Counted from the stretch's first letter, positions 20,553 through 62,890 are shown. The stretch is 64,000 nucleotides of DNA from Dictyostelium discoideum (GCA_000004695.1 CM000154.2:3072001-3136000); one strand, 5' to 3'. The notes: generated from the letters alone by a model not told the origin. Made by a program: numbers and translations.

Positions 20553-21416
20553 CTAAATTGATTTCGGTAAACAATTTTTTATTTTGGTTAAAGTAATATT
20601 ATTGAGTCTAGTATGATCAATTTCAGAAATTGAATGGGTTAAAGAGAATGGTATTGTGTTTAAAATTTTTATTGTTGGTTTGGCATCTTTTCCCATATTA
20701 AAAATACAGTATAAAATTGGAATTGTGTCACCTATTTTAGAACGAATTTCATTGATTTGTAAAGTATCTTTTTCAATATTGGTAAAGATTCCAGTGGAAG
20801 TGGATGCAAAAAATATAATATCATTCTCTTTAATTCCTGCTAAATCATTTATTTGTTTTTCTACTATATTTTGAAATGATAATTTCATTTTTAAACTTTG
20901 TAATAAATTTTCAAAAAATGGTTGATTTTTAATGATAATAAAATTTGGGTTATTATCAACAACAACAACAACATCATCATCATCATCATCAACCTTTAAA
21001 TTATTTTTTTCTTGGTTCAAATAATTTTCAAATGATTGATTTTCATTTATTAATTGTTTATCAATTTCTTGTAAATCTGGTTTTGTTGTTGTTGTAGTTA
21101 TGGATTTATTAATTGGAATTAAAGTTTTTAATTGATTTAGTTTTGAATTTTCTTTTTTTAATAGTTCAATTTCTACCAATTTTTCTTCTAAAATTTCCAG
21201 TAAAAAATGTTTATTTAAATCATGACCAAATTTTTGGAATTGAAATGGATGAAAATAATTTTCAAACTTTTTTTTAACATTTAAAATGGTATCAGTAAAT
21301 TCTAATTCAGTATTAAAATTATTATTACTATTATTATCTGATGGAAATAGGTCGTTAGTTTTTAAAATTTCATCAAAACTTTTAACTGATTTTATTTTTA
21401 AATCAAATGAAAACAT
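20553..21416 (-). CDS. Lineage-specific protein, family A (paralog of 33859..35448)
   Basis: ORF of 287 aa. The N-terminus (FENYFHPFQFQKFGHDLNKHFLLEILEEKLVEIELLKKENSKLNQLKTL) and C-terminus (IIFFASTSTGIFTNIEKDTLQINEIRSKIGDTIPILYCIFNMGKDAKPTIKILNTIPFSLTHSISEI) are collinear with FRLLEKKNLQNL...KFRGIIHIVQIRDLGTKIHRDLLYEIMFEKLLDIARLNNESKLLKNEIQDLKTKL and FVLYAVSCMGARTDSERDAFKIKSIRSIIGDKVPIIYGVFMIGKNGPTRIKVEHTQTSISITHSMSDI of the 33859 gene. Confidence 0.6.
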   Translation of the reverse strand: MFSFDLKIKSVKSFDEILKTNDLFPSDNNSNNNFNTELEFTDTILNVKKKFENYFHPFQFQKFGHDLNKHFLLEILEEKLVEIELLKKENSKLNQLKTLIPINKSITTTTTKPDLQEIDKQLINENQSFENYLNQEKNNLKVDDDDDDVVVVVDNNPNFIIIKNQPFFENLLQSLKMKLSFQNIVEKQINDLAGIKENDIIFFASTSTGIFTNIEKDTLQINEIRSKIGDTIPILYCIFNMGKDAKPTIKILNTIPFSLTHSISEIDHTRLNNITLTKIKNCLPKSI

Positions 21417-21902
21417 GTTTTTTATCTATTCTATTTTTTTTTTTTTTTTTTTTTTTCTTATATCGTTAATTAACACTGTGATAATAGGTTTTTTTTTTTT
21501 TATATTGCTTTGAAATAAAAATAATATTAATTCTTTTTTTACATTGCTTTTTTTTTTTTCATTATTTTTTTAATTTTTTTTTTTTTTTTTTTTAAGAATT
21601 TTTTTTAACTTAAATTGTTAAGCAAGTTTTCATTTAAAAATACACAACTTAGATATTTATAGGTTAAAAATTTAAATTATAACTTTTTACAATAATTTTT
21701 TCAATCATATTATTTTTTTTTTTTATTTAATATTCAAGTTATAAAAATTATAATAATTAAAAGATATTTTTTTGATTGTTTGAATTTTATTTTTTTTTAT
21801 TTTTTTTTTATTTTTTTTTATTATTTTTTTTTTATTTTAAATATGAATATTTTTTCATTTTTTTTTTTTCATTTTTTCTGCTTTGATCAACAATTTTAAA
21901 AA

Positions 21903-23061
21903 ATGAATGACAATAATAAATTTTTATATATATGGAGAAATAAAATAATAAAAAATAAAATATTATCTTTTTTAAGAGATGATAAAAATTTTTATAGTAG
22001 TTATCGATATAATAGAATATTTTCATGTTCATGGATGATAGAGAATGGATACTTTGAATTATTAAAAGAAAAAGTTGAAAAAGGTGAATATTTAGTATTC
22101 ATTAATAAAAATATATTTGATAATGGAGTTTTACCATTAGGTTTACCAAGAAGTTTAACAAAAAAGAAATATGATAATAATATTAATAATAATAATAATA
22201 ATGATAATAAAAATAAAAATAATAAAAATAATAATAATAATAATAATATTAAAAATAATCAAATTATTTTCGATAGTAATTCAATTTTTTATAAAGAAAA
22301 AGCAGCAATTCATTGGGATTTAAATTTTTATAATAATTTATTTAAAAATTATTCAAATTATTTTTTAAATTTTAATAAATCAATAACTGAAAGTACATTA
22401 ATCGAATATGATAATCAACAAGCATTACAGGTTTTAGTAGAGAATTTTAATCATATATTAGGGATTGAATCGTTTTTTAAATCATTTGAAATTGGATCTT
22501 ATGAATGTTCATTTTATATTTTTAATAAATTCAAAAATGAAATTTTAAAAAGTAAAAAACATCAAACAAGAATTTGGAATATTATATTAAACTATTCAAA
22601 TATGAAGAATGAGTTAATTACAAGTGAGATTTTAAATCAAAGAATTGATTTCATAATTAATAAATGTCAAATACCACCAACAACAACTACAACAGATTTA
22701 GAATCATTCGTACCATTTTTATTTGAAATTAAAATATTTAAACAAAAATTATCAACAATTATAGATTGTGTTAAATCAATAATTCAATTAAATGAATTAT
22801 TCACACCATTCATTACATCAATAAATGATAAATCTTATAAATTAAAATTACCAAAAAATCAAGAAATCATTTGTTCACCAGCACCACCACAATCGAAAAT
22901 TGATAAAGAATTTAAAATGTTAAATAAATTAATTTCACAATTAGGTAGTAGTGGTAAACAAGATAAAGATCAAGATAAAGATAAAAATAAAAATAATAAA
23001 TTTAAATTACCAATTGATATTAAAGAATTTGAATCATTAATATTTACAAATTTCAATAATG

Positions 23062-23096
<35 letters not shown>

Positions 23097-24689
23097 CAAC
23101 AACAACAACAATTAAATACAATAATTTGTGATTTTAATCAAAATAATACAACTAATGAACAATTTCAATTAATAAAGAAATTATATTTATTATTATTACC
23201 ATTTACAAATCATTTTAATTGTTTTATTGATAATTGGAATTTTTATAAAATTAATTATGAAAATGATTATCAAGATTATCAAACTTTTAAAAAAAATGAT
23301 AATTTCATTGTTAAAGGAACAATTAGATTTCATTCAAAAATGTTTGCACATTATAATTTTAATGATTTGAATAATGAATGTATTGATGATAATAAATTAT
23401 TTGAATATTGTAAAAATGAAAAACAATTACAAATTAATTATTTAAATAATTTAAATAATGATTTAAAAAATAATCAATCAAATAATAATAATAATAATTC
23501 AATTTTAAAATGTATATTAATTAATTTAATTTGGTTGGATGATATGGAATTAATTAAAAATTTAAATATACCAGATGATATTGAATTTTCACAAATTAAT
23601 ATAACAATGTTTATTTCAAAAGTAAAGTCAATTGAAATGTTTGATTTTATAATTCAAATTATTAAAAAGTCAGAATTAAAATTAGAATTAAATAAAAGTC
23701 AACAACAACAAGTATCAAAAATATCAATAGTTTTACAAAGATTAATTTATAGTTATAAACCAATTACCATATTAGAACATTATAAAAATAAATATTCAAG
23801 TGATTATTATTCATCGGTTAGTTCAATTGATTTAAGAGATAAATGTTACAGTTTTGAAATTTTTAAATTTGTTTATGATAATCTTTCAGATTTTAAAGAT
23901 TTAGAAAAAGTTTGTACTTGGCAAAATAATATTAATTTTGCTCCAACTTTAAATCAAATTAAATATTTAGTTGAAAGGACACCACAAAATGAAAAATATT
24001 CATTACCATTCAATTGTAATGTTTATAAACCATTTTTTGAATATGTTGTTGAAGAGAGATTCCAAGATATTCAAAATAAAACATTTGTACCTGAAAATGG
24101 TAAAACAATGTTATTTTGGTATTTTATATTTAATAAAGAATTTAGAAATAATAATAATAATAATGAAAAACATGATGGTGATAGTGGTGATGATGAAATA
24201 ATTTTAAAATATAAATTAAATTTAATGAATTTCTTTGATGAAAAATTTGAAAGAGATCCAAGCATTATTAGAGAAACATTATCAAAAGCATGTAGTTTAA
24301 ATGATTTACATTTCATTGATTTAATAATGGAAAAAGCAAAAAGTAGTAATTTAAAATATAGGTACTATAATATTTATTCAAATTGTTTAATGGAAGTATT
24401 ATCATCAATTGGTGATTTAGAAATTTTAAAATATATTCATTCAAAATATCCAGACTTGGTTGAACAAAATTTTAAAAGTATTGGTCAAAAACAAGATCAA
24501 GTTGGTTTTTTCTTTTGTTGTCCTTCAATTAGATTATCAATTTTAAATGGTAATATAGATATTTTATCATTTATTTTAAATTTATACCCTGAAAAATTAT
24601 CAATTACTTCATCAAGATTATATTTATCTTTTAATAATTCTCAATTACTTAATCACTTTTTAAATTTAAAACTTTTTGAAATTGATTAA
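21903..24689 (+). CDS. Large lineage-specific protein, family B, tandem copy 1 (928 aa)
   Basis: Single ORF. N-terminus W.N....K.L.........Y......I.SC(S/Y)WMIENGYF.LLKEKVEKGEYLVF; core NSIFYKEKAAIHWDLNFYNNLFKNYSNYFLNFNKSITESTLIEYDNQQALQVLVENFNHILGIESFFKSFEIGSYECSFYIFNKFKNEILKSKKHQTRIWNI is about 95% identical to copy 2 and highly similar to copy 3. The C-terminus has an ankyrin-like LSILNGNIDILSFILNLYP. Confidence 0.7.
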
Positions 24690-24921
24690 TCAACCAAAAA
24701 AAAAAAAAAAAAAAAAAAATCATTGTATTAATAATAAAATATAAAATAAATAAAAATAAATCATTGTACTTTTAAACTTATAAACCACACTTTTTTTAAA
24801 AAACAAATAAAAAATACATTTTTCAAATTCTTAATTATTTCTTTTTTTTTTTTGGTTTGAAAATAAAAATCTTTTTTTTTTTTTTTTTTTTTTTAATTTT
24901 TTTTTTTTTTTAAAATATAAA

Positions 24922-27528
24922 ATGAATAATAGAAGAGAGAGTGAAAATTGGTTTTTTAAAGTTTGGAGTAACAAATTTTTAAGGAGTAAAATATTATTAA
25001 AGGTTAAAGTTTTCAATGATTTTTATAATAATTACAAGCTTGATAGAATAATATCATGTTATTGGATGATAGAGAATGGATATTTTCAATTATTAAAAGA
25101 AAAAGTTGAAAAAGGTGAATATTTAGTTTTTAATAGTAGTTTAATTTATCATTCAAAATTTGATAATAAATATATATTATCACAAAGAGAAAGAGTTAAT
25201 AAAAATTTAGAAAATGGTGATGATGAATTTGTGTTAAATGAAAATTCAATTTTTTATAAAGAAAAAGCATCAATTCATTGGGATTTAAATTTTTATAATA
25301 ATTTATTTAAAAATTATTCAAATTATTTTTTAAATTTTAATAAATCAATAACTGAGAGTACATTAATCCAATATGATAATCAACAAGCATTACAAGTTTT
25401 AGTAGAGAATTTTAATCATATATTAGAGATTGAATCATTTTTTAAATCATTTGAAATTGGATCTTATGAATGTTCATTTTATATTTTTAATAAATTTAAA
25501 AATGAAATTTTAAAAAGTAAAAATTTTCAATCAAGAATTTGGAATATTATAATAAATAATATTAAATTATCAAAGAAAGATATAAATAAAGTTGAAAATT
25601 TAATTAATAAAAGTGTAAATTTTATAATAAATAAATGTAATATACAATTACCACCGCCACCACAACAACAACAACAACAACAACAACAATTCACACCATG
25701 GTTATTTAATTTTCAAATTTATGAACAAAAATTATCATTAATTTATAATTGTGTTAAATCAATAGTTCAATTAAAAGAATTTTTTAAATCATATATAAAA
25801 TCAATAAATAATAATTCATTTAAATTTAAATTTGAAAATAAAGATATAATTGAAACTAATAATTTGGTTAAAAAATATATTAAAAAATTTGTTAAGTTAT
25901 TAGTTTATGATGAGAATGGAAAGAAAAAAAAAGATTTTAAAATTCCAGATTTAAAAGAAATTGAATCAATGAAATTTACAAATCAACAATTTAATTCAAC
26001 AATTTCAGATTTAATAACAGATGGTGATGATGAAAATTATGAAAATAAAGATATTCAAGAAAACCTTAGAATTTTATACTTTTCATTAATTCCATTCATT
26101 GAACAGTATGATCATTTAATTGGTAATTTAATTTTTTATAAAGTTAAAATTTTAAATGAAAAGGATTTCATGAAATATAATCATTTGTATCCAAAATTAT
26201 GTCCTAAAATGTTTGGAATATATGGTATTTATGATTATAAATATAATAATGAAAATTATTTATTTATATATTGTAAAAATAATAGAAATCTTCAAATTGA
26301 ATATATTGGAAAAATCATTGAATCATTTCACAATCAAAAATATCCTATATTTGATTTATTATTATTATTTAGAAATTTAGTATGGTTAAATGATTTAGAA
26401 TTGGTTAATTTATTAATAAACAAAATGGAAGATAATGGTTATAGATTTGAAGATAATGATAGACAATTTTTAATTTTAAATATAAAATCAATTGAAATGT
26501 TTGATTTAATTTATAGAAATTTTAAATCACAATCAAAAAACCAAAATAATAATAATAATAATAATAGTAATAATATTTATAATACTAGTTACCCAATTTC
26601 AGAAACAAAGTTTTTTTTTAATACATTATTAAAAAGTAAATTTGAAAATTTATCAATATTATTACAACATTATAAAGATTATTATACAAATGATTATTAT
26701 ACAATAGTTGATTTAATAGATTTTAAAAATAAAAATTATTCATTTGAAGTTTTTAAATTTGTTTATGATAATTTAATAGATTTTAAAGATTATGAAAAAG
26801 TTAATGTTTGGAGTGGTACCAATAATATAAAATTAATAAAAACATTAAATCAATTCAAATATTTAGTTAAACTTACACCAATTAATAAAGATTATAAAAT
26901 ACCATATGGAAATGAATCATTTTTTAAATTTATAATTGAGGAAAGATTAAATGATTTAGAAATTGGTAGATGTGATATTACAGAAACTAGTTTACCAGAT
27001 TATAGATATTTTAAAATTTATAGAAATTATAGAGTTAATAAAAATGAAAATGAAAATGAAAATGAAAAACAATTATATTATTCATTTGAAGGAAATAATA
27101 CAATATTAAGGAATACATTAATAAAGGCGTGTAAATATAATGATTTAAAATTTATTGATATGGTAATGGAAGAATCTTTTTTATATGATCAAAATAATAA
27201 AGATAATGAAAATTTTAAAAATATTTATATTATTAGCATTTTAGAAGTAATATGTTCACAAGGCGATTTAGAACTTTTTAAATATCTTTATTCAAAATAT
27301 TCAAGTACAATAGATTTTTATTTAATAAAAAATGATAAACCTGGTTTTGATGGCTATTGTCTTCCAATTAAACTTGCTTTACTCAATGGTCATATCGACT
27401 TTTTATTATTCATTTTAAATTTAATATCAGATAAAATTTATATAAATTCAAACACAACAATTAATAATAAATTATTATTAAATCATTTTTTAAATGAAAA
27501 AAATGAATTATTAACAATCTTATTATAA
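24922..27528 (+). CDS. Large lineage-specific protein, family B, tandem copy 2 (868 aa)
   Basis: Same architecture as copy 1: RIISCYWMIENGYFQLLKEKVEKGEYLVF; NSIFYKEKASIHWDLNFYNNLFKNYSNYFLNFNKSITESTLIQYDNQQALQVLVENFNHILEIESFFKSFEIGSYECSFYIFNKFKNEILKSKNFQSRIWNI; shared mid/C-terminal blocks (FEVFKFVYDNLIDFKDYEKV, LALLNGHIDFLLFILNL). Confidence 0.7.
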   Translation: MNNRRESENWFFKVWSNKFLRSKILLKVKVFNDFYNNYKLDRIISCYWMIENGYFQLLKEKVEKGEYLVFNSSLIYHSKFDNKYILSQRERVNKNLENGDDEFVLNENSIFYKEKASIHWDLNFYNNLFKNYSNYFLNFNKSITESTLIQYDNQQALQVLVENFNHILEIESFFKSFEIGSYECSFYIFNKFKNEILKSKNFQSRIWNIIINNIKLSKKDINKVENLINKSVNFIINKCNIQLPPPPQQQQQQQQQFTPWLFNFQIYEQKLSLIYNCVKSIVQLKEFFKSYIKSINNNSFKFKFENKDIIETNNLVKKYIKKFVKLLVYDENGKKKKDFKIPDLKEIESMKFTNQQFNSTISDLITDGDDENYENKDIQENLRILYFSLIPFIEQYDHLIGNLIFYKVKILNEKDFMKYNHLYPKLCPKMFGIYGIYDYKYNNENYLFIYCKNNRNLQIEYIGKIIESFHNQKYPIFDLLLLFRNLVWLNDLELVNLLINKMEDNGYRFEDNDRQFLILNIKSIEMFDLIYRNFKSQSKNQNNNNNNNSNNIYNTSYPISETKFFFNTLLKSKFENLSILLQHYKDYYTNDYYTIVDLIDFKNKNYSFEVFKFVYDNLIDFKDYEKVNVWSGTNNIKLIKTLNQFKYLVKLTPINKDYKIPYGNESFFKFIIEERLNDLEIGRCDITETSLPDYRYFKIYRNYRVNKNENENENEKQLYYSFEGNNTILRNTLIKACKYNDLKFIDMVMEESFLYDQNNKDNENFKNIYIISILEVICSQGDLELFKYLYSKYSSTIDFYLIKNDKPGFDGYCLPIKLALLNGHIDFLLFILNLISDKIYINSNTTINNKLLLNHFLNEKNELLTILL

Positions 27529-28058
27529 TATTAATAAATAAAAAAGTGATAAAAAAAAAAAAAAAAAATCATAAAAAAGTAAACCAAATAAAAATTGGAA
27601 TTCGAGGGTTAAAATAATTTTTTTTTATTTTTTTCATCAACACTAACCACATTTCCAGGTGATTATATTCCATGTAGTAGCATTAGTAGTGGTTGTAGTA
27701 GATCCACAAACTTAAGCTCAACTAAAAACCATTAGATCATCAACATCCTTAGAAATATCAACAAACCTTAAATGATCACCATTATACATGAAAAATAATT
27801 ACATTGAAATGTTTATCCTCAAAATAACAACAAAAGATCACTCACAAACATCGAAATAAAAAAAAAAAAAAAAAAAAAAAAAAAGTATATTTGAAAATAA
27901 TAAAAAAAAAAAAAATGGATTGCAATATTATTTTTTTTTTAATTTTTTAAGTGATTTTATTTTTTATTTATTTTTTTATTTTATGATTTTGTTTTTTACC
28001 CCTATAAAAAATTTCTAACCACAAAATTTTAAAAATAATTTTTTTTTTTTTTTTTTTT

Positions 28059-30016
28059 ATGCATATTAATTTTCCAAACACAATGATATCCAATCAAAAT
28101 ATAATAAATAATAATATTGATAATAATAAAAAGTGTACACTTCACCCAAACAAAGATATAATATTCTTTTGTTTAGATTGTAAATTAATACCATGTTGTA
28201 TTCAATGTATATCAAGTAAAGGTGAACATCATGGTCATAAAACTGATCCATTAGAATCAACTTCAAATATTCTTTCATTAATGAATAATTTTAAAGATGA
28301 TATATATCAAAAAGTAATTGACAGAATAGAAACCAATGAAAAAATATTAAAACAATCAAATGATAAATATAATAAAATTCAATCACAATTTGATATTAAT
28401 AATAATTCATTAAAAAAAGAAATTAAAAAAATTCATGATATCATTTCAATCATAGAATTAGATATTAAAAAAAAATTACAAACAACCTTTGAAAATAATA
28501 CATTAATAAATACAATTATAACTTCTTCAATCAATAATGATAATCAAATACTTTCAACTATAATTAATTATAAAAATGAAAATGAAAATGAAAATGAAAA
28601 TGAAAATGAAAATGATAATATTACAACCATTGAAAAATTAAATGAAATTATAAAATTTAATGATCAACAAATTTATGATAATGGAGATGATTTTATTATT
28701 GATAGAGATACTATTAAAATTATTAAACAATATCAACAATCATTAATAGTATTAAATAATAATAATAATATCGATTATTCAAATAAATTAAATGAATACG
28801 ATAATCAAATCATTCATTTCAATAATCAAATAATTGATGATATTAAAAATAATTTAAAATCAATTTATACCTTAGATAATTGTGGATTTAAAATTGAAAT
28901 TGATGAAAATAATAATAAATTTTTTAAATGTAAGCTTTAAACTGTTTTTTTTTTTAATAAATGATTTTCACATTCTAATTACCAAATATAGGGAATAATT
29001 TAAAGTTTTATATTAAATATGAAGGTGGTTTTTTTAAATATAGGGAAGGTATAGCACTCAAAGACAATTGTAATATTTTATCAGAATTAAAAAATAAATT
29101 ACCATTACATGTAATGCTATTGGACGGATTCTATCAAAAATTAACACCAGGTATATTACCAGATGGTGTTATTCTCTTGTATTTAGGTGATATTAAACAA
29201 GAATTAATAATTGGTTCAATTCCTAATACTGTAACGAGTGTCTCTTTATTGAATGGATTCAATCAAAAATTAACACCAGGTATATTACCAGATAGTGTTA
29301 AATCCTTGTATTTGGATGGATTTAATCAACAATTAACACCAGGTATGTTACCATATAGTGTTAAATGGTTGGGTTTAGGTGATTATAAACAAGAATTAAT
29401 AAATGGTTCAATTCCTAATACTGTAACGAGGGTCTCTTTATTGAATGGATTCAATCAAAAATTAACACCGGGTATATTACCAGATAGTGTTAAATTGTTG
29501 AAATTAGGTGATATTAAACAAGAATTAATAATTGGTTCAATTCCTAATACTGTAACTTTTGTCACTTTATTGAATGAATTCAATCAAAAATTAACACCAG
29601 GTATATTACCAGATAGTGTTAAATTGTTGAAATTAGGTGATATTAAACAAGAATTAATAATTGGTTCAATTCCTAATACTGTAACGAGTGTCTCTTTATT
29701 GAATGGATTCAATCAAAAATTAACACCAGGTATATTACCAGATGGTTTAGAATCGTTGTATTTAGGTGATATTAAACAAGAATTAATGATTGATTCAATT
29801 CCTAATACTGTAACGAATGTATCTTTAGAAGATGGATTCAATCAAAAATTAACACCAGGTATATTACCAGATGGTTTAGAATCGTTGTATTTAGGTGATA
29901 TTAAACAAGAATTAATAATTGGTTCAATTCCTAATACTGTAAAGGAAGTAAAAGTTTCCCAAAGTTTTAAACATCAAATTGAACCTTATGTCTCAAAAAA
30001 TGTAAAAATAATTTAA
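28059..30016 (+). CDS. B-box zinc-finger + coiled-coil + FNIP-repeat protein; exons 28059..28929, 28992..30016
   Basis: N-terminus CTLHPNKDIIFFCLDCKLIPCCIQCISSKGEHHGH has B-box Cys/His spacing, followed by a coiled-coil-like K/E/I/N-rich region. The ORF 28059..28940 ends in ...FFKCKL* but a GTAAGC donor at 28930 plus a 62-nt intron ending ATATAG (28991) joins in frame (phase 1, codon TGG) to the open frame carrying ORF 29114..30016. That frame holds about 10 tandem ~22-aa FNIP repeats (FNQKLTPGILPDSVK.L.LGD...QELIIGSIPNTVT.V.LL.G). The repeat unit is about 66 nt and recurs nearly identically at 29150..29900. Confidence 0.6.
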
Positions 30017-30434
30017 TAAGGAATTTGCAGAGTGCTTTATTTTTAATGTTGAATAAAACAATTTCTAGTACTGTAAATGTTTCCAAAAGTTTTAAACTAC
30101 AAAAAAAATCAAATCAAATCAAATCAAATCAAAAATCGTTTCTTGTCAAAATTAAATTAAATTAAATTAAATTATACCAAATCAAATTGTTTCTTTTGAA
30201 AAAAAAAAAAAAAAAATAAAATAAAATAAAAATAAGCCCTGGTGTTTCTGATTTTTTTGCGAATTATATATTTTATTTTATTTTTTTTAATATTTTTTAT
30301 TTTAATTGTGAACAAATAATAAAATAAAAAAAAAAAAATTGTTCAATTAATTTATAATAAATAATAATAATAATAAATAAAGTTTTTTTATTATACATAA
30401 AACAAATGCAAAAATTAAAAACACAACTTTGCAA

Positions 30435-30466
<32 letters not shown>

Positions 30467-31045
30467 CTGATAATTATTAATCGTCTTTTCAGTTTTTTGA
30501 TTTCTTTTTATCTGGGTGATTTATTTTTAATATTTTATTTTTTTTATTTTTTTTATTTTTTTTTTTTTTTTTTATTTTTTTTTTTTATTTTTTTTTATTT
30601 TTTTTATCCCAGTTTATTTGAAAATATCCTTGCATTTTAAATTTTTTATTTTTTTTATTTTTTTTATTTTTAATTCACTTTTTTACACACCACAAAACAC
30701 CATGAAAATATATTTCTTTTTATTGTTATATTTCCACTCCTCATAATAAAAATCACATTACAATAGATTTATGTTTTAAAAAAAAAAAAAATTAAAAAAA
30801 AAAAAAAAAAAAAAAAATAAATAAATAAAAATAAAATTGTGACCAATTAGAAATTTTTTAAAATAAAATGTTTTGTTGAAAAAAAAAGTAATTCAAATAA
30901 TAAAAAAAATATCTTTTTTTTTTTTTCGATTTCCAAATGATCAAAAAAAAATTTTTTTTTTTTTTTTTTTTTTTCTTTTAAATTTTCAAACATATTATTT
31001 TTATTTAATTTTTTTTTTTTATTTAAATTAAAAAATAAAAAAAAA

Positions 31046-33739
31046 ATGAATAATTATAATGATGTTATTTTTTTTAAAATTTGGAGAAATCATTTTATTA
31101 GAAATAATATATTAGAAAAAATTAAAGATGATAAAAATTTTTATGACAGTTTTAAATATGAAAAGATATTTTCATGTTCATGGATGATAGAGAATGGATA
31201 TTATTTATTATTAAAAGAAAAAGTTAATAGAGGTGAAAATTTAATATTCAATTGTATTGATTCACTTTGGGAAACCAATGAAAAAGAATTTATACCAAGA
31301 AATTTAACAAGAAAGAAATTTGATAATGGTCGTCTATTTGTACTAGATTGTAATTCAATTTTTTATAAAGAAAAAGCAGCAATTCATTGGGATTTGAATT
31401 TCTATATAAATTTATTTAAAAATTATCCAAATTATTTTTTAAATTTTAATAAAAATGAAACAGAATTCACATTAATTGAATATGATAATCAACAAGCATT
31501 ACAAATTTTTGTAGAGAATTTCAATCATATATTACAAATTGAATCGTTTTTTAGGTCATTTGAAATTGGTTCTTATGAATGTTCATTTTATATTTTTAAT
31601 AAATTTAAAAATGAAATTTTAAAAAGTAAAAAACATCAATCAAGAATTTGGAATACTTTATTGAATCATTCAATATTTAAAAATGAAATGATTGAAATTG
31701 ATTTAATAAATCAAAGAATTGATTTCATAATTAATAAATGTCAAATACCAATACCAAAATCATTATCAGATGTTCAACAACTCCAATTCGTGCCATGTTT
31801 TTATGAAATTAAAATATATGAACAAAAATTATCAACAATATTAGATTGTTTAAAAACTATATCACAACTTTCAAATATTTTTAAATCATTTTTAAAATCA
31901 ATAAATGATAAATCATATAAAATAAAATTAACAAAAGATCAAGATGAATATTATTCAAAAAAAGGTAGTTCAACACAATTAAATTTAGAATTATCAAATA
32001 TAAATTCATTAATTTGGTCATTAGGTAGTGGTAATAATAATAATAATAATAATAGTACAAGTACATTATTATTATTATCAATAACAGATATTAAAAATAA
32101 ATTTACAAGTAAAGAATTAGAAACAAATATTATTGAATTATTAATTACAAGTGAAAAGAATGAAATAATTTTTGGATTATATCGTTCATTATTACCATTT
32201 ACTCATCATTTAAATCATTTTATTGATAATTGGAATTTTTATCAAATTAAAAGGGAAAATAATTATCAAGATTATTTAAAAATTAAAAAACATACTATTA
32301 TTACAACAGATACTGTTTTTCATTCAAAAATGTTTGCACATTATAAATTTCAAGAATTTATTGATGATTGTCAAGATGATAATAATTTATTTAGATTTTG
32401 TAAAACAAAAGATTCCCAAATTAATTTTATCAATAATTTTAATAAAGATTTAATAATGACAAATCAACCAAAGAAATATAATCTTTATAAAAATATTCTT
32501 TCAAATTTAGTTTGGTTAGATGATATTGAATTAATAAATTTATTAAAGAAACCAGTTGAAGTTGAATTTAAACAAAATGAGAAATTATTATTAATTTCAA
32601 AATTAAAATCAAATGAAATGTTTGATATAGTTTATCAAGTTTTAAAAATGGCAAATGAAATGGAAAGAAATTTAAATATATTAAAATCAATTGATTATAG
32701 TATTAGTTCAACAACAACAACAACTACTACTTCTACCACAACAACAAATACAGTATCAAATGTTACTATTGGTAATGATGGACAACCTATAAAAAGAATT
32801 TTAGAAATGTTAATCTTATGTGAAAAATCAAATATTTTACAACATTTTAAAAATAATTATACTCTTGATTATCTTTCACAAGTGAATTATATTGATTTAA
32901 CAAATAAAACATTTAAATTTGGAATTTTTAAATTTGTTTATGATAATTTATCAGATTTTTCAGTTTATGAGAGAGTTAATGCTTGGAGAAATAATCTTAG
33001 TTTCATAACAAATGTTCAAGAATTTAAATATTTAGTTGAACGTACACCATCATCATCAGATTATAAACTACCATCAGATAATGGTTTATCATATTTTAAA
33101 TATATGGTACAAGAAAGATTATTTGATTTACAAAGTGGTAGATGTAGTTTCGAATCACATAAATATCCAATTTATCAATACTTTAAATTGGTTAAAGATA
33201 AAAGACAAGGTAAAGAAACTAATGAAGATGATATTAAAGAGGAATTTAATGATTTAATTTATCCAAAAAAATCAACATTTAGTAGTTATACACTAAGAAG
33301 TACATTTTCAAAAATTTGTCAATACAATGATTTGGATTTAATTGATCTTATTTTTACCGATGCTTCAAACTTCACCAATTTTGGTGATCAAAAAACAACA
33401 AATTCCAAATCGTATGTACAAATACTTTTGGAAGTAATAACATCACAAGGTGATTTAGAACTTTTTAAATATGTAAATTCAAAATTTCCAGAAATAGTTT
33501 TAATCATTTTAAAAGATGGTTCAAAATCAAGTTGGGTTAACGGTTTTTATCGTTGTTGTCGCCCTGTTCAACTTGCACTTACAAATGGCCATATTGACTT
33601 TTTATTATATATTTTAAGTTTAAAGAAAACAAATAAAGTCTTTTTAAAAATAACTCATATCTCAATTACATTCAATAATAAATGTTTATTAAATCATTTA
33701 ATAAATATAGACAATAGTTATTTATTTTTTGAACATTAA
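31046..33739 (+). CDS. Large lineage-specific protein, family B, tandem copy 3 (897 aa)
   Basis: KIFSCSWMIENGYYLLLKEKVNRGENLIF; NSIFYKEKAAIHWDLNFYINLFKNYPNYFLNFNKNETEFTLIEYDNQQALQIFVENFNHILQIESFFRSFEIGSYECSFYIFNKFKNEILKSKKHQSRIWNT; LLPFTHHLNHFIDNWNFYQI; FHSKMFAHYKF; GIFKFVYDNLSDFSVYERV; LALTNGHIDFLLYILSL. These are collinear with copies 1 and 2. Confidence 0.7.
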   Translation: MNNYNDVIFFKIWRNHFIRNNILEKIKDDKNFYDSFKYEKIFSCSWMIENGYYLLLKEKVNRGENLIFNCIDSLWETNEKEFIPRNLTRKKFDNGRLFVLDCNSIFYKEKAAIHWDLNFYINLFKNYPNYFLNFNKNETEFTLIEYDNQQALQIFVENFNHILQIESFFRSFEIGSYECSFYIFNKFKNEILKSKKHQSRIWNTLLNHSIFKNEMIEIDLINQRIDFIINKCQIPIPKSLSDVQQLQFVPCFYEIKIYEQKLSTILDCLKTISQLSNIFKSFLKSINDKSYKIKLTKDQDEYYSKKGSSTQLNLELSNINSLIWSLGSGNNNNNNNSTSTLLLLSITDIKNKFTSKELETNIIELLITSEKNEIIFGLYRSLLPFTHHLNHFIDNWNFYQIKRENNYQDYLKIKKHTIITTDTVFHSKMFAHYKFQEFIDDCQDDNNLFRFCKTKDSQINFINNFNKDLIMTNQPKKYNLYKNILSNLVWLDDIELINLLKKPVEVEFKQNEKLLLISKLKSNEMFDIVYQVLKMANEMERNLNILKSIDYSISSTTTTTTTSTTTTNTVSNVTIGNDGQPIKRILEMLILCEKSNILQHFKNNYTLDYLSQVNYIDLTNKTFKFGIFKFVYDNLSDFSVYERVNAWRNNLSFITNVQEFKYLVERTPSSSDYKLPSDNGLSYFKYMVQERLFDLQSGRCSFESHKYPIYQYFKLVKDKRQGKETNEDDIKEEFNDLIYPKKSTFSSYTLRSTFSKICQYNDLDLIDLIFTDASNFTNFGDQKTTNSKSYVQILLEVITSQGDLELFKYVNSKFPEIVLIILKDGSKSSWVNGFYRCCRPVQLALTNGHIDFLLYILSLKKTNKVFLKITHISITFNNKCLLNHLINIDNSYLFFEH

Positions 33740-33858
33740 TAATAATAAATAATAATAAATAATAATAAAAATAATTAATAATTAAATAAAAAAAAAAGGA
33801 ATAATTAACTTTATTGAATATATAGATGTTTTTTTTTTATTTTTTTATTTTTTAATAT

Positions 33859-35448
33859 TTATTGTTGTAAAAATGATTGTAGTTGTTTTAAATTTTCATT
33901 ATTTTGTAAATTACGACCGATATCACTCATTGAATGAGTGATTGAGATAGAGGTTTGAGTATGTTCAACTTTAATTCTAGTTGGTCCATTCTTTCCAATC
34001 ATAAATACACCATAGATGATTGGAACTTTGTCACCAATTATTGAACGAATTGATTTAATTTTGAAAGCATCTCTTTCGGAATCAGTTCTAGCACCCATAC
34101 AAGAGACAGCATATAATACAAAAACATTTTCAAAATCACCTACACTATAGCTATTATCATTTAACCCAATTTTAGTAAGGTCTTTTACTTCTTGGACTGT
34201 TACATCTTTCAATCTACTTTGTAATAATGTTGTCATATTTGGAAAGAAATCACTTTGTTTGTACACCAATAGCTTTTTATTTGTGATTACTTGTTGTTTT
34301 GTTACAAATGTAGTTTCAGCAAACAATGGTGTTTTCAATGCTTCAACTTCCATCTCTGCAGTAGATACATCATCATTGGAAGACCTTGGGTGTGTATCAA
34401 CTTTAATTTCTAAAGTTTCATTTTGTGGAATTTCAATAATAAATTCTTCACCATTTTTTTGTTTATCTTCTAGTTTTTCTTCTTTTTGTTTATCTTCTTC
34501 TTGTTTATCTTCTTTCTTATCTTCTTCTTTTTTATCTTCTTTTTGTTTATCTTCTTCTTGTGGAATTTCAATAATAAAATTTTCACCATCTTGTTGTTTA
34601 CCTTCTTCTTTTTGTTTTTCTTCTTCTTGTGGAATTTCAATAATAAAAATTTCACCATATTTTTGTTTACCTTCTTCTTTTTTATCTTCTTCTTTTTTAT
34701 CTTCTTTTTGTATACCTTCTTTTTGTTTAACCTCTTCTTGTTTAACCTCTTCTTGTTTATCTTGTTTCTCTTCATTTTGATGTGAAGGTGAAGTTGATGA
34801 AAATGTTTGTTGATTAGTCTCTGTTTGAGTTTGCTGTTTTACAGTTTTTATTGATTCTTGTGGAATCTCATTGGTAATATTATTCACTTGATTTTGTTTT
34901 TCTTCTAGTTTGTGTGATGGTGATGATTGTTGGGATTGGTCACTTTTTATTTTAAAAAAATCGAGTTCAATAGATTTATCAATGGAATCACCTTCACTTT
35001 GTTTTTTATCAATACTAGTAGCTCCCATTGTTGTCTTAGTGGTAGTAGTAGTAGTAGTGGTGTCTATGACATTGATAAAACTATTGATTATTAAGTCTGT
35101 ATTGGTGGTGCTATTATTGTTGTGATATTCGTCGAGTTTTGTTTTCAAATCTTGAATTTCATTTTTTAAAAGTTTTGATTCATTATTTAATCTAGCAATA
35201 TCTAATAGTTTTTCAAACATTATTTCATACAATAGATCTCTATGAATCTTTGTTCCTAAATCTCTAATTTGCACGATATGAATGATACCCCTGAATTTAG
35301 GAACTTTGGAAAAATCTTTTTCTGTATAAGTGGTTCTCCAATTGAGGTTTCCTGGTCCATCAATCTGGTTATCTAGGTTTTGTAAATTCTTCTTTTCCAA
35401 AAGTCTAAAAAATTCATCTACGTCTTTTAAATGGAAAAAATCTAACAT
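33859..35448 (-). CDS. Lineage-specific protein, family A (paralog of 20553..21416), with internal E/K-rich tandem repeats
   Basis: ORF of 529 aa. Its ends are homologous to the 20553 gene (see that entry). The centre holds three copies of (Y/D)GE(I/N/E)FIIEIPQ(E/N)E separated by K/E/Q/D-rich spacers, from roughly 111-nt repeat units around 34440..34790. The antisense ORFs 34259..34780, 34470..34775 and 34486..34785 are by-products of this repeat. Confidence 0.65.
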   Translation of the reverse strand: MLDFFHLKDVDEFFRLLEKKNLQNLDNQIDGPGNLNWRTTYTEKDFSKVPKFRGIIHIVQIRDLGTKIHRDLLYEIMFEKLLDIARLNNESKLLKNEIQDLKTKLDEYHNNNSTTNTDLIINSFINVIDTTTTTTTTKTTMGATSIDKKQSEGDSIDKSIELDFFKIKSDQSQQSSPSHKLEEKQNQVNNITNEIPQESIKTVKQQTQTETNQQTFSSTSPSHQNEEKQDKQEEVKQEEVKQKEGIQKEDKKEEDKKEEGKQKYGEIFIIEIPQEEEKQKEEGKQQDGENFIIEIPQEEDKQKEDKKEEDKKEDKQEEDKQKEEKLEDKQKNGEEFIIEIPQNETLEIKVDTHPRSSNDDVSTAEMEVEALKTPLFAETTFVTKQQVITNKKLLVYKQSDFFPNMTTLLQSRLKDVTVQEVKDLTKIGLNDNSYSVGDFENVFVLYAVSCMGARTDSERDAFKIKSIRSIIGDKVPIIYGVFMIGKNGPTRIKVEHTQTSISITHSMSDIGRNLQNNENLKQLQSFLQQ

Positions 35449-36149: not shown

Positions 36150-39100
36150 TTAAGAACCTTGGGTTCCAATTTTTTTTAGTTTTTTAGATAATTGATTTTC
36201 AACAAATTTCTTTTTATAGATATAGAAAGATAAAGCAATAACCAAAGCCACACCTAATACACCAGAAACAACCACCACAGGAATTAAATAAGCAGGTCTT
36301 TCACTTTCACCACAATCATTTTTAAAAGATGTCGTAACTAAAACGGAAAAATCAGGGTCAATTATACAATTTGTACAATATGGTAAATTTAAACCAACAA
36401 TAACTGAATCACTTGATTTTGTAACAAGCTCAGATGTGATAATTGAAGATCTACCATCTGAAAGTATTCTATTTAAAAATCTGGCTTGCATAATTTTTGA
36501 ATCCTTTTTAATTGTTATATAATTTAATAATTCGTTATTACTATTTTGAATATCTGTATCTTGTTGATTACAATCATTATTATCACTTGTTACTGATGAT
36601 TGAAATTGTAATTGTAAATTATTTAAGAATGAATTATATTGATAATTATTAATTGATACCGAAATTTTAATTGAACCACTATCTAAAGTTAAATTATAAC
36701 CTGCAAATGAGTAATGTTTTGATTTCTCTTTAATCTCCTCAACTGTATATGATACAGTACAATTTGTTAATGATTGAACTAATGTTTGAGAGAATTGATA
36801 AATATTATTACTATTATTATCATCTGTATTTTTCATTTCTGTTACCCATTTATTATCTAATGTATACTCTTTAATTACATTTTTATCAACATCAAATTCA
36901 ATTAATTTTGTAATTAAAATTTGGTAACTTGTTTTTTGATTATTTATAACTGTTGTACCATTATTATCAATTGTTGTATTTGATGATGGTACTCCACCAT
37001 TACCATTACCACCACCACCACCACTAATGATGCTACAATCAAATCCTGTATATCCAGATCTACAATTACATTCACCTGTATTTACAATACAATCACCATT
37101 TTTTGAACAATTATTTAAACAACTTTTAACACTTGTTTCATAAATGAAATAGCCTGACCATGAAACTCCATTTTGTTGAATTGATAATGACTTTTTACCT
37201 GTACCTGGCCAAATAGTACATTGTATTGAAACATTTGTTATGGTATTTTGAATTAATGGACAATTTTGATTATCAATGCTAACTATTAAATTATTATGAG
37301 AATTTGAAAACCAACCATATAAAGTTATATCACCACCCATTTCATTAACAGAATCAATCGAGGATACATATATATTGGTATTTATACTACAATCATCACC
37401 ACTCCATCCAACTGCGCAAACACATTTTAATGAATTTGTATCACAATATTCACCAATGTTACACTCTCTATAACATTTAGGTGGAAGTTGTGATTGAGTT
37501 GCATTTACTGTTTTAACAATTTCTTTAATACTTGAAAAATAAATTGTAAAAATACCATTTGATGGTAATAATTCATTAAAATAGTATGAAGATTCAAATC
37601 TGTATGATGGAATGGTTGGTTCCCAACTAAAAAATGGTACCGTATAAAAATCTTGAGAATTAAGTCCAATATCATTTCCCCACATTATTAATTTTTTATT
37701 TACTCTATCAATATAAATATTAACTTTAATTGTAGAACATGTTGGGTCATATTTCAAATTACTATTAAATAAAAAAATATTTCTTGATGATGATGGGTAA
37801 CATGAAAAACATGAAGGTAAAGTTCCAGATAAATTATTAAACTTTAAATCTAAAGACATTGAATTCATTGTACAATAACTTGAATCAACTGTTCCTGATA
37901 TCTTTTTTATAAAAAAAATAATAAAAATAAAAACATAATTATAAAAAAAAAAAAAAAATCAAAATTAATATTATTCAAATAATTTGATTTTTAAATTTTT
38001 AAAAAATACATACCATATTATTACTTAAATCTAAAATTGAAAAATTATTTTTTGGTAACTTTACATTTAAATTGGAATACAATATTTTTAATTCGTCAAC
38101 ATTTGAAAATTTATTCAAATCTTTTTCATTTGGAAAATTTCCTCCATTTATTTCAAATTTTTTGATATTTGGAAGTGATAAAAATGGGATCATACCATTT
38201 ATTGAAAATTCACCAAAAGTATATCCAAATCTTAATTCTGTTATATTATTGTTTTCTGGTAATTCAATCATTTGGGTTGGTTTATTTATCATTCCACCTA
38301 TTGATCTTTTTTTTTTTTTTTTTTTTTTATAATTATTATTATTATTTTTATTATTTTAAACGATTAAAAAAATTTAAAAAAAAATATTTACAATGATGTC
38401 ATTATTGAATTTTGAATATTAAATATTGATATTGGGAAATCTATAGTAGAATTATTAATGAATGCACTAAAAGATAAATAAAACTTTATTAGTTTACAAT
38501 TTCTAATAATAAAACTATAATTAATAATACATACAATTTTTGAACTTTGGTCATTGTTGCCAAGTTTGATACATCATTATTAATGTATGAAAAATAATCT
38601 GTTAAATATAAATTCAATTCTTTTACATTTACATTTGTAAAAGATGGTATAGAATTTGCAACTAAACTTAAAAAATCAATATCCAAAACACTTTTAAGGT
38701 CATTTACATAAGTAACTGAAATTTCTCCAATACTTGTATTAGGAACAATTTCTAGTATTCCAAATTTATTTAAATATGAAAATTTAAACTCTCCTTGAAA
38801 ACTAGGTGGATGAACTATTGATCTATTATGAAACAATTAATAATAAAATTTATGAATAATGATAATAAAAAAAATAAAAAAATAAAAAAATAAAATAAAC
38901 TTACAAATATGTTTGAGAAATTGGTGAATCAATCTTTACAACATTACATAGAGTTAAAGTTATAGATTCCACATAAACATTGCTTAAAAAATCTGGTGAT
39001 AGGTAACAATTTGAGAGTTTTCTTATTTTTTTTTTTTATTTTTAATATTGAAAATTAAAAAATAATTAATAAAATAAAAAATAGTTTAAAATAATTAAAA

Positions 39101-59179: not shown

Positions 59180-62890
<3,711 letters not shown>

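Follow-up and report, generated by a model that had tools for sequence, protein, structure and literature searches.

A conserved, non-inverted cluster of two apparently clade-restricted gene families on chromosome 5 of Dictyostelium discoideum

The 2005 description of the D. discoideum genome reportedly found local duplications to be frequent. The tgrB1/tgrC1 genes of this species form a head-to-head allorecognition pair (PMC12745789), and synteny is generally extensive among its close relatives (PMC11193728). Here we describe a locus on chromosome 5 of strain AX4, within an analysed stretch of 64 kb (the window), where three co-oriented genes of one family (B1, B2, and B3) are bracketed by two genes of a second, unrelated family (A1 and A2). 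AX4 was compared with D. firmibasis, D. citrinum, D. cf. discoideum, and two other D. discoideum strains (ACTFIW and ACTFIR), and orthologs were assigned by tblastn together with ORFs. The block is an ordinary gene cluster, old, inherited, and conserved, instead of a 15-kb segmental duplication of recent date, which corrects an earlier reading: the arrangement is neither recent nor inverted, and its significance is modest.

Gene layout and the two families

Both A reading frames lie exactly where a preliminary description of the locus had placed them and are identical to the annotated AX4 proteins (Table 1). That description was also right in setting one A gene outside the array on each side, A1 at 486 bp from the B1 ATG and A2 at 119 bp from the B3 stop. 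Two of its other points need revision: the supposed inverted pair consists of direct copies, as A1 and A2 are both on the minus strand, and the three-gene array is interrupted, in AX4, by a B-box/FNIP gene between B2 and B3. The B genes are neighbours on the plus strand, with overall mutual identities of 46–52%. The two junctions differ, A1(-)/B1(+) being head-to-head with A on the left, and B3(+)/A2(-) tail-to-tail with A on the right. Profile searches of the window recovered these two A and three B genes and nothing more.

Table 1. Features of the cluster (positions counted from the first nucleotide of the window)
Feature	Position	Strand	Basis
A1 = DDB_G0289681, 287 aa, single exon	20553..21416	-	identical to annotated protein; family alignment
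A1 C-terminal conserved domain (aa 156-287)	20556..20951	-	
A1-B1 spacer, divergent (head-to-head), 486 bp ATG to ATG	21417..21902	.	ORF coordinates
B1 = DDB_G0289683, 928 aa	21903..24689	+	
Homogenised 93-codon segment, B1 copy (NSIFYKEK...NEILKSK)	22278..22556	+	nucleotide tree, private residues
B2 = DDB_G0289685, 868 aa	24922..27528	+	orthologs form one clade in tree
Homogenised segment, B2 copy	25243..25521	+	nucleotide tree, private residues
AX4-specific insertion, 3.28 kb, in B2-B3 spacer	27569..30848	.	breakpoints by blastn vs. two other D. discoideum strains
B-box zinc-finger/FNIP-repeat gene inside insertion	28059..30016	+	Pfam
B3 = DDB_G0289687, 897 aa	31046..33739	+	
Homogenised segment, B3 copy	31352..31630	+	nucleotide tree, private residues
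B3-A2 spacer, convergent (tail-to-tail), 119 bp stop to stop	33740..33858	.	
A2 = DDB_G0289787, 529 aa, single exon	33859..35448	-	identical to annotated protein
A2 C-terminal conserved domain (aa 390-529)	33862..34281	-	BLASTP, tblastn, family alignment
A2 linker, E/K/Q-rich, low-complexity, three FIIEIPQ units	34414..34776	-	TRF, motif counts

A1 and A2 are true, distantly related paralogs, homologous at both termini, as had been proposed, with a middle part that has no homology. With composition-adjusted BLASTP, 31% identity was found both in the C-terminal 140 aa (E = 7e−18) and in the N-terminal 88 aa (E = 2e−5), and the similarity persisted when low-complexity sequence was masked with SEG (1.6e−15, tblastn against the window). 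Smith-Waterman scores compared with 1000 shuffles gave z values of 28.2 for the C-terminus, 10.8 for the N-terminus, and 0.6 for the middle, with no shuffle (0/1000) reaching the observed terminal scores, while 32 columns of the family alignment are invariant in nine members from four taxa. At the DNA level the only colinear match is a stretch of ~75 bp with 76% identity, located inside the coding domain (20702..20774 vs. 34003..34077). In a genome of ~20% GC, one could suspect that the similarity is an artefact of the composition of Dictyostelium coding sequence, which is AT-rich and of low complexity, the more so as the central parts of both proteins are of low complexity and align no better than shuffled sequence, but the composition-adjusted and SEG-masked searches, the shuffle scores, and the invariant columns rule this explanation out and leave it a negligible probability.

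A word-indexed search returned nine A homologs, all from the D. discoideum group, and a full HMMER search of the family profile against 1.84 billion representatives gave just seven matches, all from Dictyostelium. Judged from these searches, family A is restricted to the clade of D. discoideum, D. citrinum, and D. firmibasis, and it is uncharacterised; a full-text search found no publications naming the five DDB_G identifiers or the five UniProt accessions of the A and B genes. Among the 8000 word-sharing candidates to which the search for B homologs extended, family B was found in the same narrow clade alone, and its range covers at least these species. B2 and B3 bear the UniRef name “Ankyrin repeat-containing protein”, a designation that hmmscan against Pfam-A did not bear out, giving no family at E ≤ 0.1 for B1, B2, or B3. 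Nothing significant was obtained in the Pfam scan of all five proteins; a hit to Astro_VPg (E = 0.011) was below the cut-off and fell in the low-complexity linker.

The A proteins share a plan of an N-terminal helical region, a variable linker (short in A1), and a C-terminal alpha/beta domain of 130 aa. As the full-length model of A1 was poor (pLDDT 54.7), the C-terminal domain was modelled alone, and the resulting medium-confidence model has a G-domain/CheY-like fold without a P-loop, a fold that is very common. None of the nine aligned members contains GxxxxGK[ST] (G1, Walker A) or [NT]KxD (G4), and Pfam gave no GTPase family match for A and no Response_reg match for this domain at E ≤ 0.1. 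In the model, the invariant acidic residues N61-D62, E78, and D80 (numbered in the 150-aa fragment) would fall ahead of the central strand or at the beginning of the next helix, and a CheY-type phospho-acceptor Asp at the end of the central strand was not found. Our guess from the model would be a protein-interaction or adaptor role, with A acting as a dimerising coiled-coil protein that carries a degenerate G-domain-like module.

Synteny, age, and later changes

When the locus was compared across Dictyostelium, as the preliminary description had advised, the order ComC-like-A2-B3-B2-B1-A1 was found in all five other genomes, which represent four taxa, with 1:1 orthologs throughout (B1 being a remnant in D. 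firmibasis). A2 orthologs were identified in D. firmibasis, D. citrinum, D. cf. discoideum, and both additional D. discoideum strains, and in the trees each of A1, A2, B1, B2, and B3 formed a clade of its own with one ortholog per species. Since order and orthologs are shared, all the duplications predate these species; a pre-duplication state was seen in none of the genomes examined. An explanation confined to the AX4 reference, either a recent duplication (segmental or inverted) or an assembly artefact, would draw on the superficially symmetrical look of the block, with one A gene at either end, and on the one structural change private to AX4 within it, the 3.28-kb insertion. Against it stand the ~31% protein identity of A1 and A2 and their sole shared DNA (75 bp at 76%), their location on the same strand, the same order in five independent assemblies, and the clustering of orthologs by gene, not by species, save in a short B conversion tract. 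This explanation is thus ruled out by cross-species synteny and the level of divergence, and its chance of being correct is minimal. We hold with high confidence that the cluster is ancient, conserved, non-inverted, and devoid of a repeating unit.

Gene conversion has made the B genes more alike in a 93-codon segment. A DNA tree of the 97-codon tract groups the copies by species and not by gene, and 6 of the 7 residues shared by paralogs and private to one species fall within 115 of the 747 alignment columns. The nucleotide identity of AX4 B1 and B2 in the segment is 96%; D. citrinum B1 and B2 are likewise 96% identical to each other, vs. 89% to their D. discoideum orthologs, and a private change of QQ to LE is common to all three copies in D. 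cf. discoideum. Trees and private substitutions were used here because AT-biased codon usage keeps third-position identity at ≥ 0.8 everywhere, which makes a third-position test of conversion uninformative. No gene conversion was seen in the A pair.

The number of intact B copies is two in D. firmibasis and three elsewhere. B1 has orthologs in D. citrinum and D. cf. discoideum, survives as no more than a remnant in D. firmibasis, and is broken into two ORFs in strain ACTFIW. Spacers between B genes in the other genomes measure 190–640 bp (230–460 bp in most of them). In AX4, the 3.28-kb insertion replaces ~235 bp present in strain ACTFIR and is absent at this locus from all five other genomes. 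The gene that it carries matches zf-B_box (9e−09) and FNIP (1.2e−77) in Pfam, probably has one intron (predicted donor 28930, acceptor ~28991) and a product of ~631 aa, and its nearest paralog found is DDB_G0289849 (89% amino acid identity). The insertion is of practical interest to users of AX4 as a reference, given that the gene is missing at this position in the other five genomes.

The E/K-rich repeat that had been noticed, in three copies, in the distal A gene is confirmed as an insert specific to the A2 lineage whose unit expanded recently. AX4 has exactly three FIIEIPQ units (34647..34627, 34578..34558, and 34443..34423), the two other D. discoideum strains two, D. cf. discoideum one, and D. 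firmibasis none, and TRF reported 2.4 copies of a 69-bp period (91% matches) at 34535..34694. The linker grew through slippage or tandem duplication of the 69-bp unit, with 0, 1, 2, and 3 FIIEIPQ in successive lineages.

Origin of the cluster

The preliminary description proposed a 15-kb segmental duplication with A as part of the duplicated unit. This proposal is not supported: the junctions differ, relics are lacking, each family has been copied without the other, and five other genomes have the same gene order. With HMM profiles and six-frame translation, no A relics between the B genes and no B relics outside the A genes were detected in the 64-kb window, and neither the same order and orientation in each copy of an [A+B] unit nor an alternation of A and B was found. 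No A gene lies within 8 kb of a fourth B paralog (P0023), and the third A copy, a truncated relic of the A2 N-terminus (P0018/DDB_G0288601) located 1.35 Mb away, has no B nearby, its surroundings having been examined in the ACTFIR ortholog. Homology in the sequence between each A gene and its neighbouring B gene, which had been suggested as a check, failed to appear: blastn of the A1 region against the A2 region, and of all intergenic regions against one another, gave AT-rich low-complexity matches only, the sole colinear match being coding, and the A1-B1 spacer showed nothing beyond AT-rich low complexity against either A2 flank. Such a negative result is expected at this age, so it weakens the model of a repeating unit only slightly.

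Kimura distances between A1 and A2 are 1.47–1.64, vs. 0.62–0.76 for A orthologs of D. discoideum and D. firmibasis; for B, the paralogs differ by 0.92–1.15 outside the conversion tract, vs. 0.43–0.62 for the orthologs of the same two species. The resulting paralog/ortholog ratios (A ~2.1–2.4, B ~1.8–2.2) are compatible with co-duplication and not diagnostic of it, and as both are ~2, they fit a single burst with A in it equally well. When the B tree was rooted with the outgroup P0023, no grouping of B1, B2, and B3 exceeded 52% bootstrap; the B1+B3 sister relationship of a midpoint-rooted tree was discarded, as it received 30–40% with the outgroup, vs. 41–52% for B2+B3. With values this low (≤ 52%), the branching order cannot tell which B, if any, accompanied which A.

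The A genes are old paralogs in direct orientation that flank the B array, and from these data we infer how the cluster first arose: it would have formed by stepwise local duplication, the A pair being of independent origin, a reading that as a whole has a probability of about 0.55. The B genes would have multiplied through B-only tandem duplication in a short burst, and A would have been copied separately in the same neighbourhood, with no repeating [A+B] unit. The order ComC-like, A2, B3, B2, B1, A1 was in place before the species split; later changes comprise the homogenisation of the B segment by gene conversion, the decay of B1 in some lineages, the growth of the A2 linker, and, in the AX4 lineage alone, the arrival between B2 and B3 of the 3.3-kb insertion with its B-box/FNIP gene.

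In favour of the earlier proposal that A belonged to the duplicated unit, the A and B splits are of similar relative age, which leaves room for an ancient [A+B] duplication followed by loss of one B. Here, a head-to-head [A(-) B(+)] pair would have been copied in tandem to give A1-B-A2-B', with subsequent loss of the terminal B' upstream of A2 and multiplication of the internal B to three copies. The direct orientation of A1 and A2 is what a tandem duplication predicts, the ratios of ~2 in both families fit, and the B copies seem to have arisen in a short burst, but the scheme requires an additional, traceless loss of B', as the spacer upstream of A2 measures 350–700 bp in every species and holds no B remnant. 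Moreover, the A1-B1 promoter has no homology to the region upstream of A2, A2 and B3 are tail-to-tail, unlike A1 and B1, and A and B have each been seen copied alone elsewhere. Nothing positively shows such a co-duplication, and we consider it rather unlikely. A selected functional module could also be envisaged, with A and B acting together and kept adjacent and co-regulated, for instance by the divergent promoter that A1 and B1 share, in analogy to the head-to-head recognition pair tgrB1/tgrC1. In its favour, all six genomes have the same order and orientation, the spacer of 486 bp between A1 and B1 is divergent, and both families are so far found in the same narrow clade (for B, among the candidates covered). 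However, the conservation of this cluster is not special given the extensive general synteny (PMC11193728), B1, the promoter partner of A1, is dispensable (a remnant in D. firmibasis, split in ACTFIW), and a full-text search found no expression or interaction data for A or B. The block (93–97% DNA identity between AX4 and ACTFIW/ACTFIR) is also no more diverged than the flanking genes (~94%), so there is no sign of hypervariability of the tgr type, an idea that was dropped because the flanking genes diverge equally. We regard a module of this kind as improbable, and the more specific version of it, a clade-specific A2-B(n)-A1 module in which a coiled-coil A with a degenerate, P-loop-less G-domain-like module would work with a helical B, as similarly improbable; if true, selection would keep A and B together, the A1-B1 promoter would co-regulate them, and continuing conversion would maintain an interaction surface common to the B proteins.

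Comparison with known systems

Family A, a small orphan family, and the tandem family B both arose in the ancestor of the D. discoideum group, and the locus offers three clean, dated examples of how such a cluster changes: a short conversion tract, a coding repeat that grew step by step, and an insertion of gene size in one strain. The C-terminal domain of A resembles the small-GTPase G domain and the CheY-like receiver, i.e., flavodoxin-like three-layer alpha/beta folds, at the fold level only. Like tgrB1/tgrC1 (PMC12745789), A1 and B1 are adjacent, divergent, lineage-specific genes of two families within a multigene cluster; they differ in having no excess of polymorphism over their flanks and no Pfam surface-protein domains, and the likeness is one of layout only. 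The B segment behaves as in concerted evolution of tandem paralogs, in that paralogs of one species are closer than orthologs, but conversion is confined to ~300 bp and the remainder keeps a clean 1:1 orthology. Like other lineage-specific tandem families of D. discoideum, the B genes are co-oriented, closely spaced, apparently restricted to few species, and variable in copy number, whereas here two members of a second, unrelated family, of about the same relative age as the array, stand on either side of it and do not alternate with it.

Two gene families and the paralogy of the A genes

The window is strongly AT-rich, with ~13–30% GC in the flagged stretch. The five ORFs of interest (table below) were all identical to annotated D. 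discoideum AX4 proteins, i.e., two family-A genes (A1 and A2) flanking three co-oriented family-B genes (B1, B2, and B3). A genes directly adjoin B genes on each side, as previously claimed, with 486 bp between the start codons of A1 and B1 and 119 bp between the stop codons of B3 and A2. A literature search found no paper naming any of the A or B genes. B2 and B3 appear as 'Ankyrin repeat-containing protein' in UniRef naming, and neither ankyrin nor any other Pfam-A family was found in B1, B2, or B3 at E ≤ 0.1. A weak tblastn match to the B2 N-terminal motif was seen at 59183..59407 (E 2e-4, 36% over 75 aa), where the B profile gave nothing significant; this is probably no further B gene but an N-terminal motif that the B family has in common with other Dictyostelium proteins.

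Features of the A/B cluster and related loci (window coordinates unless a locus is named)
Feature	Coordinates	Strand	Details
A1	20553..21416	-	DDB_G0289681, 287 aa
B1	21903..24689	+	DDB_G0289683, 928 aa
B2	24922..27528	+	DDB_G0289685, 868 aa
B3	31046..33739	+	DDB_G0289687, 897 aa
A2	33859..35448	-	DDB_G0289787, 529 aa
AX4 insertion	27569..30848		between B2 and B3; 3.28 kb; replaces ~235 bp of strain ACTFIR
B-box/FNIP ORFs	28059..28940, 29114..30016		between B2 and B3
Homogenised 93-codon segment, B1	22278..22556	+	
Homogenised 93-codon segment, B2	25243..25521	+	
Homogenised 93-codon segment, B3	31352..31630	+	
Truncated A copy, D. discoideum strain ACTFIR	L008 10001..10318		P0018
AX4 counterpart of P0018			DDB_G0288601, annotated as 62 aa

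Using BLASTP with compositional adjustment, A1 and A2 shared 31% identity both in their C-terminal parts (156–283 vs. 390–527, E 7e-18) and in their N-terminal parts (8–93 vs. 7–93, E 2e-5). The reciprocal C-terminal match survived SEG masking in tblastn searches against the window (1.6e-15 and 5e-14), and none of 1000 residue shuffles attained the observed local alignment scores (z = 28.2 for the C-terminal and 10.8 for the N-terminal parts), while the central parts scored no higher than random (z = 0.6). The proposed homology at both termini was thus borne out, with similarity beyond composition persisting under masking, and on these alignments we regard the paralogy as real.

The A family is confined to few species: a word-indexed search with the A1/A2 profile returned 9 proteins, which belong without exception to D. 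discoideum, D. cf. discoideum, D. citrinum, and D. firmibasis, and a full HMMER search of 1.84 billion representative proteins gave only 7 hits (E ≤ 0.001), all from the same species set. A Pfam scan of A1 and A2 gave no significant match. When the nine members were aligned, the helical N-terminal region (…EKLVEI.LLKKE…) proved conserved, the linker variable, and the C-terminal block again conserved, 32 of its columns being invariant. A third member is truncated: it duplicates the A2 N-terminus over 105 codons, with 54% identity to A2 (E 7e-26), and lies on the same chromosome 1.35 Mb from the cluster, amid unrelated genes.

Conservation of the cluster and later turnover

Orthologous loci were compared from D. 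firmibasis (L001), D. citrinum (L002), D. cf. discoideum (L003 and L004), and the D. discoideum strains ACTFIW (L005) and ACTFIR (L006). Based on tblastn and ORF assignment, order and orientation were alike at every locus (ComC-like gene, A2, B3, B2, B1, A1) with two exceptions, both in B1: in D. firmibasis it is a ~140-bp remnant (L001 9362..9503), and in strain ACTFIW it is split into two ORFs (L005 17612..20147) that annotators bridged with an intron. Judging from these two cases, B1 is decaying in some lineages. In neighbour-joining trees, A1 and A2 as well as B1, B2, and B3 formed separate clades with one ortholog per species in each, hence all the duplications are older than the split of these species. 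D. firmibasis chromosome 3 is reported to be extensively syntenic with D. discoideum chromosome 5 (PMC11193728), so conservation of the cluster is not exceptional in itself.

Three B genes are indeed present, as previously described, but in AX4 the array is interrupted by a B-box/FNIP gene (Pfam: a B-box zinc finger at E 9e-09 and seven FNIP repeats at E 1.2e-77). The segment carrying it, with both breakpoints at A/T runs, is missing from all five other genomes examined (two other D. discoideum strains, D. cf. discoideum, D. citrinum, and D. firmibasis), in which the B2–B3 spacer measures 190–640 bp. Splicing from the GT at 28930 to the in-frame AG at 28991 would, we infer, make the two ORFs a single gene (28059..30016, ~631 aa), whose nearest paralog found was DDB_G0289849 (89% amino-acid identity). 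Close to its left boundary, the insertion contains a ~200-bp patch (27600..27800) that is not AT-rich and lacks any long ORF; this patch may be a coding fragment that came with the inserted gene. Compared with strains ACTFIW and ACTFIR, AX4 showed similar divergence inside the block (93–97% identity) and in flanking genes (~94%), and the cluster is no hotspot of polymorphism.

The statement that A2, the distal copy, had acquired a repeat was correct. Three FIIEIPQ motifs are present in AX4 (aa 268, 291, and 336), the first two 23 codons apart, matching the 69-bp period detected by TRF (34535..34694, 2.4 copies, 91% matches). Two motifs occur in each of strains ACTFIW and ACTFIR, one in D. cf. 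discoideum (as FIIEIPP), and none in D. firmibasis. By these counts, growth of the unit was stepwise and recent, and the E/K/Q-rich linker present in D. firmibasis implies that the charged linker is ancestral to the A2 lineage.

The B paralogs are much more alike in a 93-codon segment than in the remainder of the genes (B1 vs. B2: 96% nucleotide identity in the segment, ~47% amino-acid identity overall). A DNA tree built from the tract placed the B copies together by species; in D. citrinum, B1 and B2 were 96% identical vs. 89% to the D. discoideum orthologs, and in D. firmibasis B2 grouped with B3. Derived states were common to all three B genes of D. cf. discoideum (QQ to LE) and of D. citrinum (LFNNY/LNYNK). 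Of the 7 private residues shared by a species' paralogs, 6 fell inside 115 of 747 alignment columns. This pattern, together with the grouping by species, is the hallmark of gene conversion on a strongly constrained domain and indicates that conversion is confined to ~300 bp.

Origin of the A/B arrangement

In the preliminary description, the whole 15-kb block was ascribed to segmental duplication of a unit that included the A genes, with A1 and A2 as an inverted pair. The bracketing is real; the pair is not inverted, as both genes lie on the minus strand, and an A-containing repeat unit found no support. The A1/B1 junction is head-to-head and that of B3/A2 tail-to-tail, so the block is not two copies of one unit. 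Comparing the A1 and A2 flanks and all intergenic regions against each other, including those between A and B genes for which homology had been proposed as a check, gave AT-rich low-complexity matches only; the sole colinear DNA match (20702..20774 vs. 34003..34077, 76% over 75 bp) lies within the conserved coding domain. When the entire window was translated in six frames and searched with HMM profiles of both families, two A genes and three B genes came up and no others; relics were absent both from the B–B spacers and from the sequence beyond the A genes. On the grounds of junctions, flanks, relics, and cross-species orthologs, a recent duplication, or one from a repeating unit, was rejected.

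An ancient tandem duplication of an A–B pair, followed by loss of one B gene and expansion of the other, would be compatible with the relative dating. Kimura distances between A1 and A2 were 1.47–1.64 vs. 0.62–0.76 for D. discoideum–D. firmibasis orthologs, those between B paralogs outside the conversion tract 0.92–1.15 vs. 0.43–0.62 for orthologs, and the paralog/ortholog ratio was therefore ~2 in both families. Each family has, however, been copied without the other: among the matches listed, D. firmibasis has a fourth B paralog (P0023, at locus L007) around which nothing A-like lies within 8 kb, and the A2 N-terminal copy sits amid unrelated genes. As this is the sole behaviour actually observed for each family, we slightly prefer that A and B arose by independent stepwise local duplications, and consider joint duplication a somewhat less likely but serious rival. 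In trees rooted with P0023, bootstrap support was low for every B pairing (B1+B3 30–40%, B2+B3 41–52%, B1+B2 17–19%), which suggests a short burst of B duplication. P0023 directly adjoins a ComC-like EGF/SSD gene (L007 8001..15898), and the main cluster also has a ComC-like gene just beyond A2 (36150..37868); this shared neighbourhood may be coincidental or may go back to an older and larger duplication.

The block is an old and conserved cluster in which two clade-restricted families have since undergone ordinary turnover, and its A and B genes represent an uncharacterised instance of a familiar genome feature.
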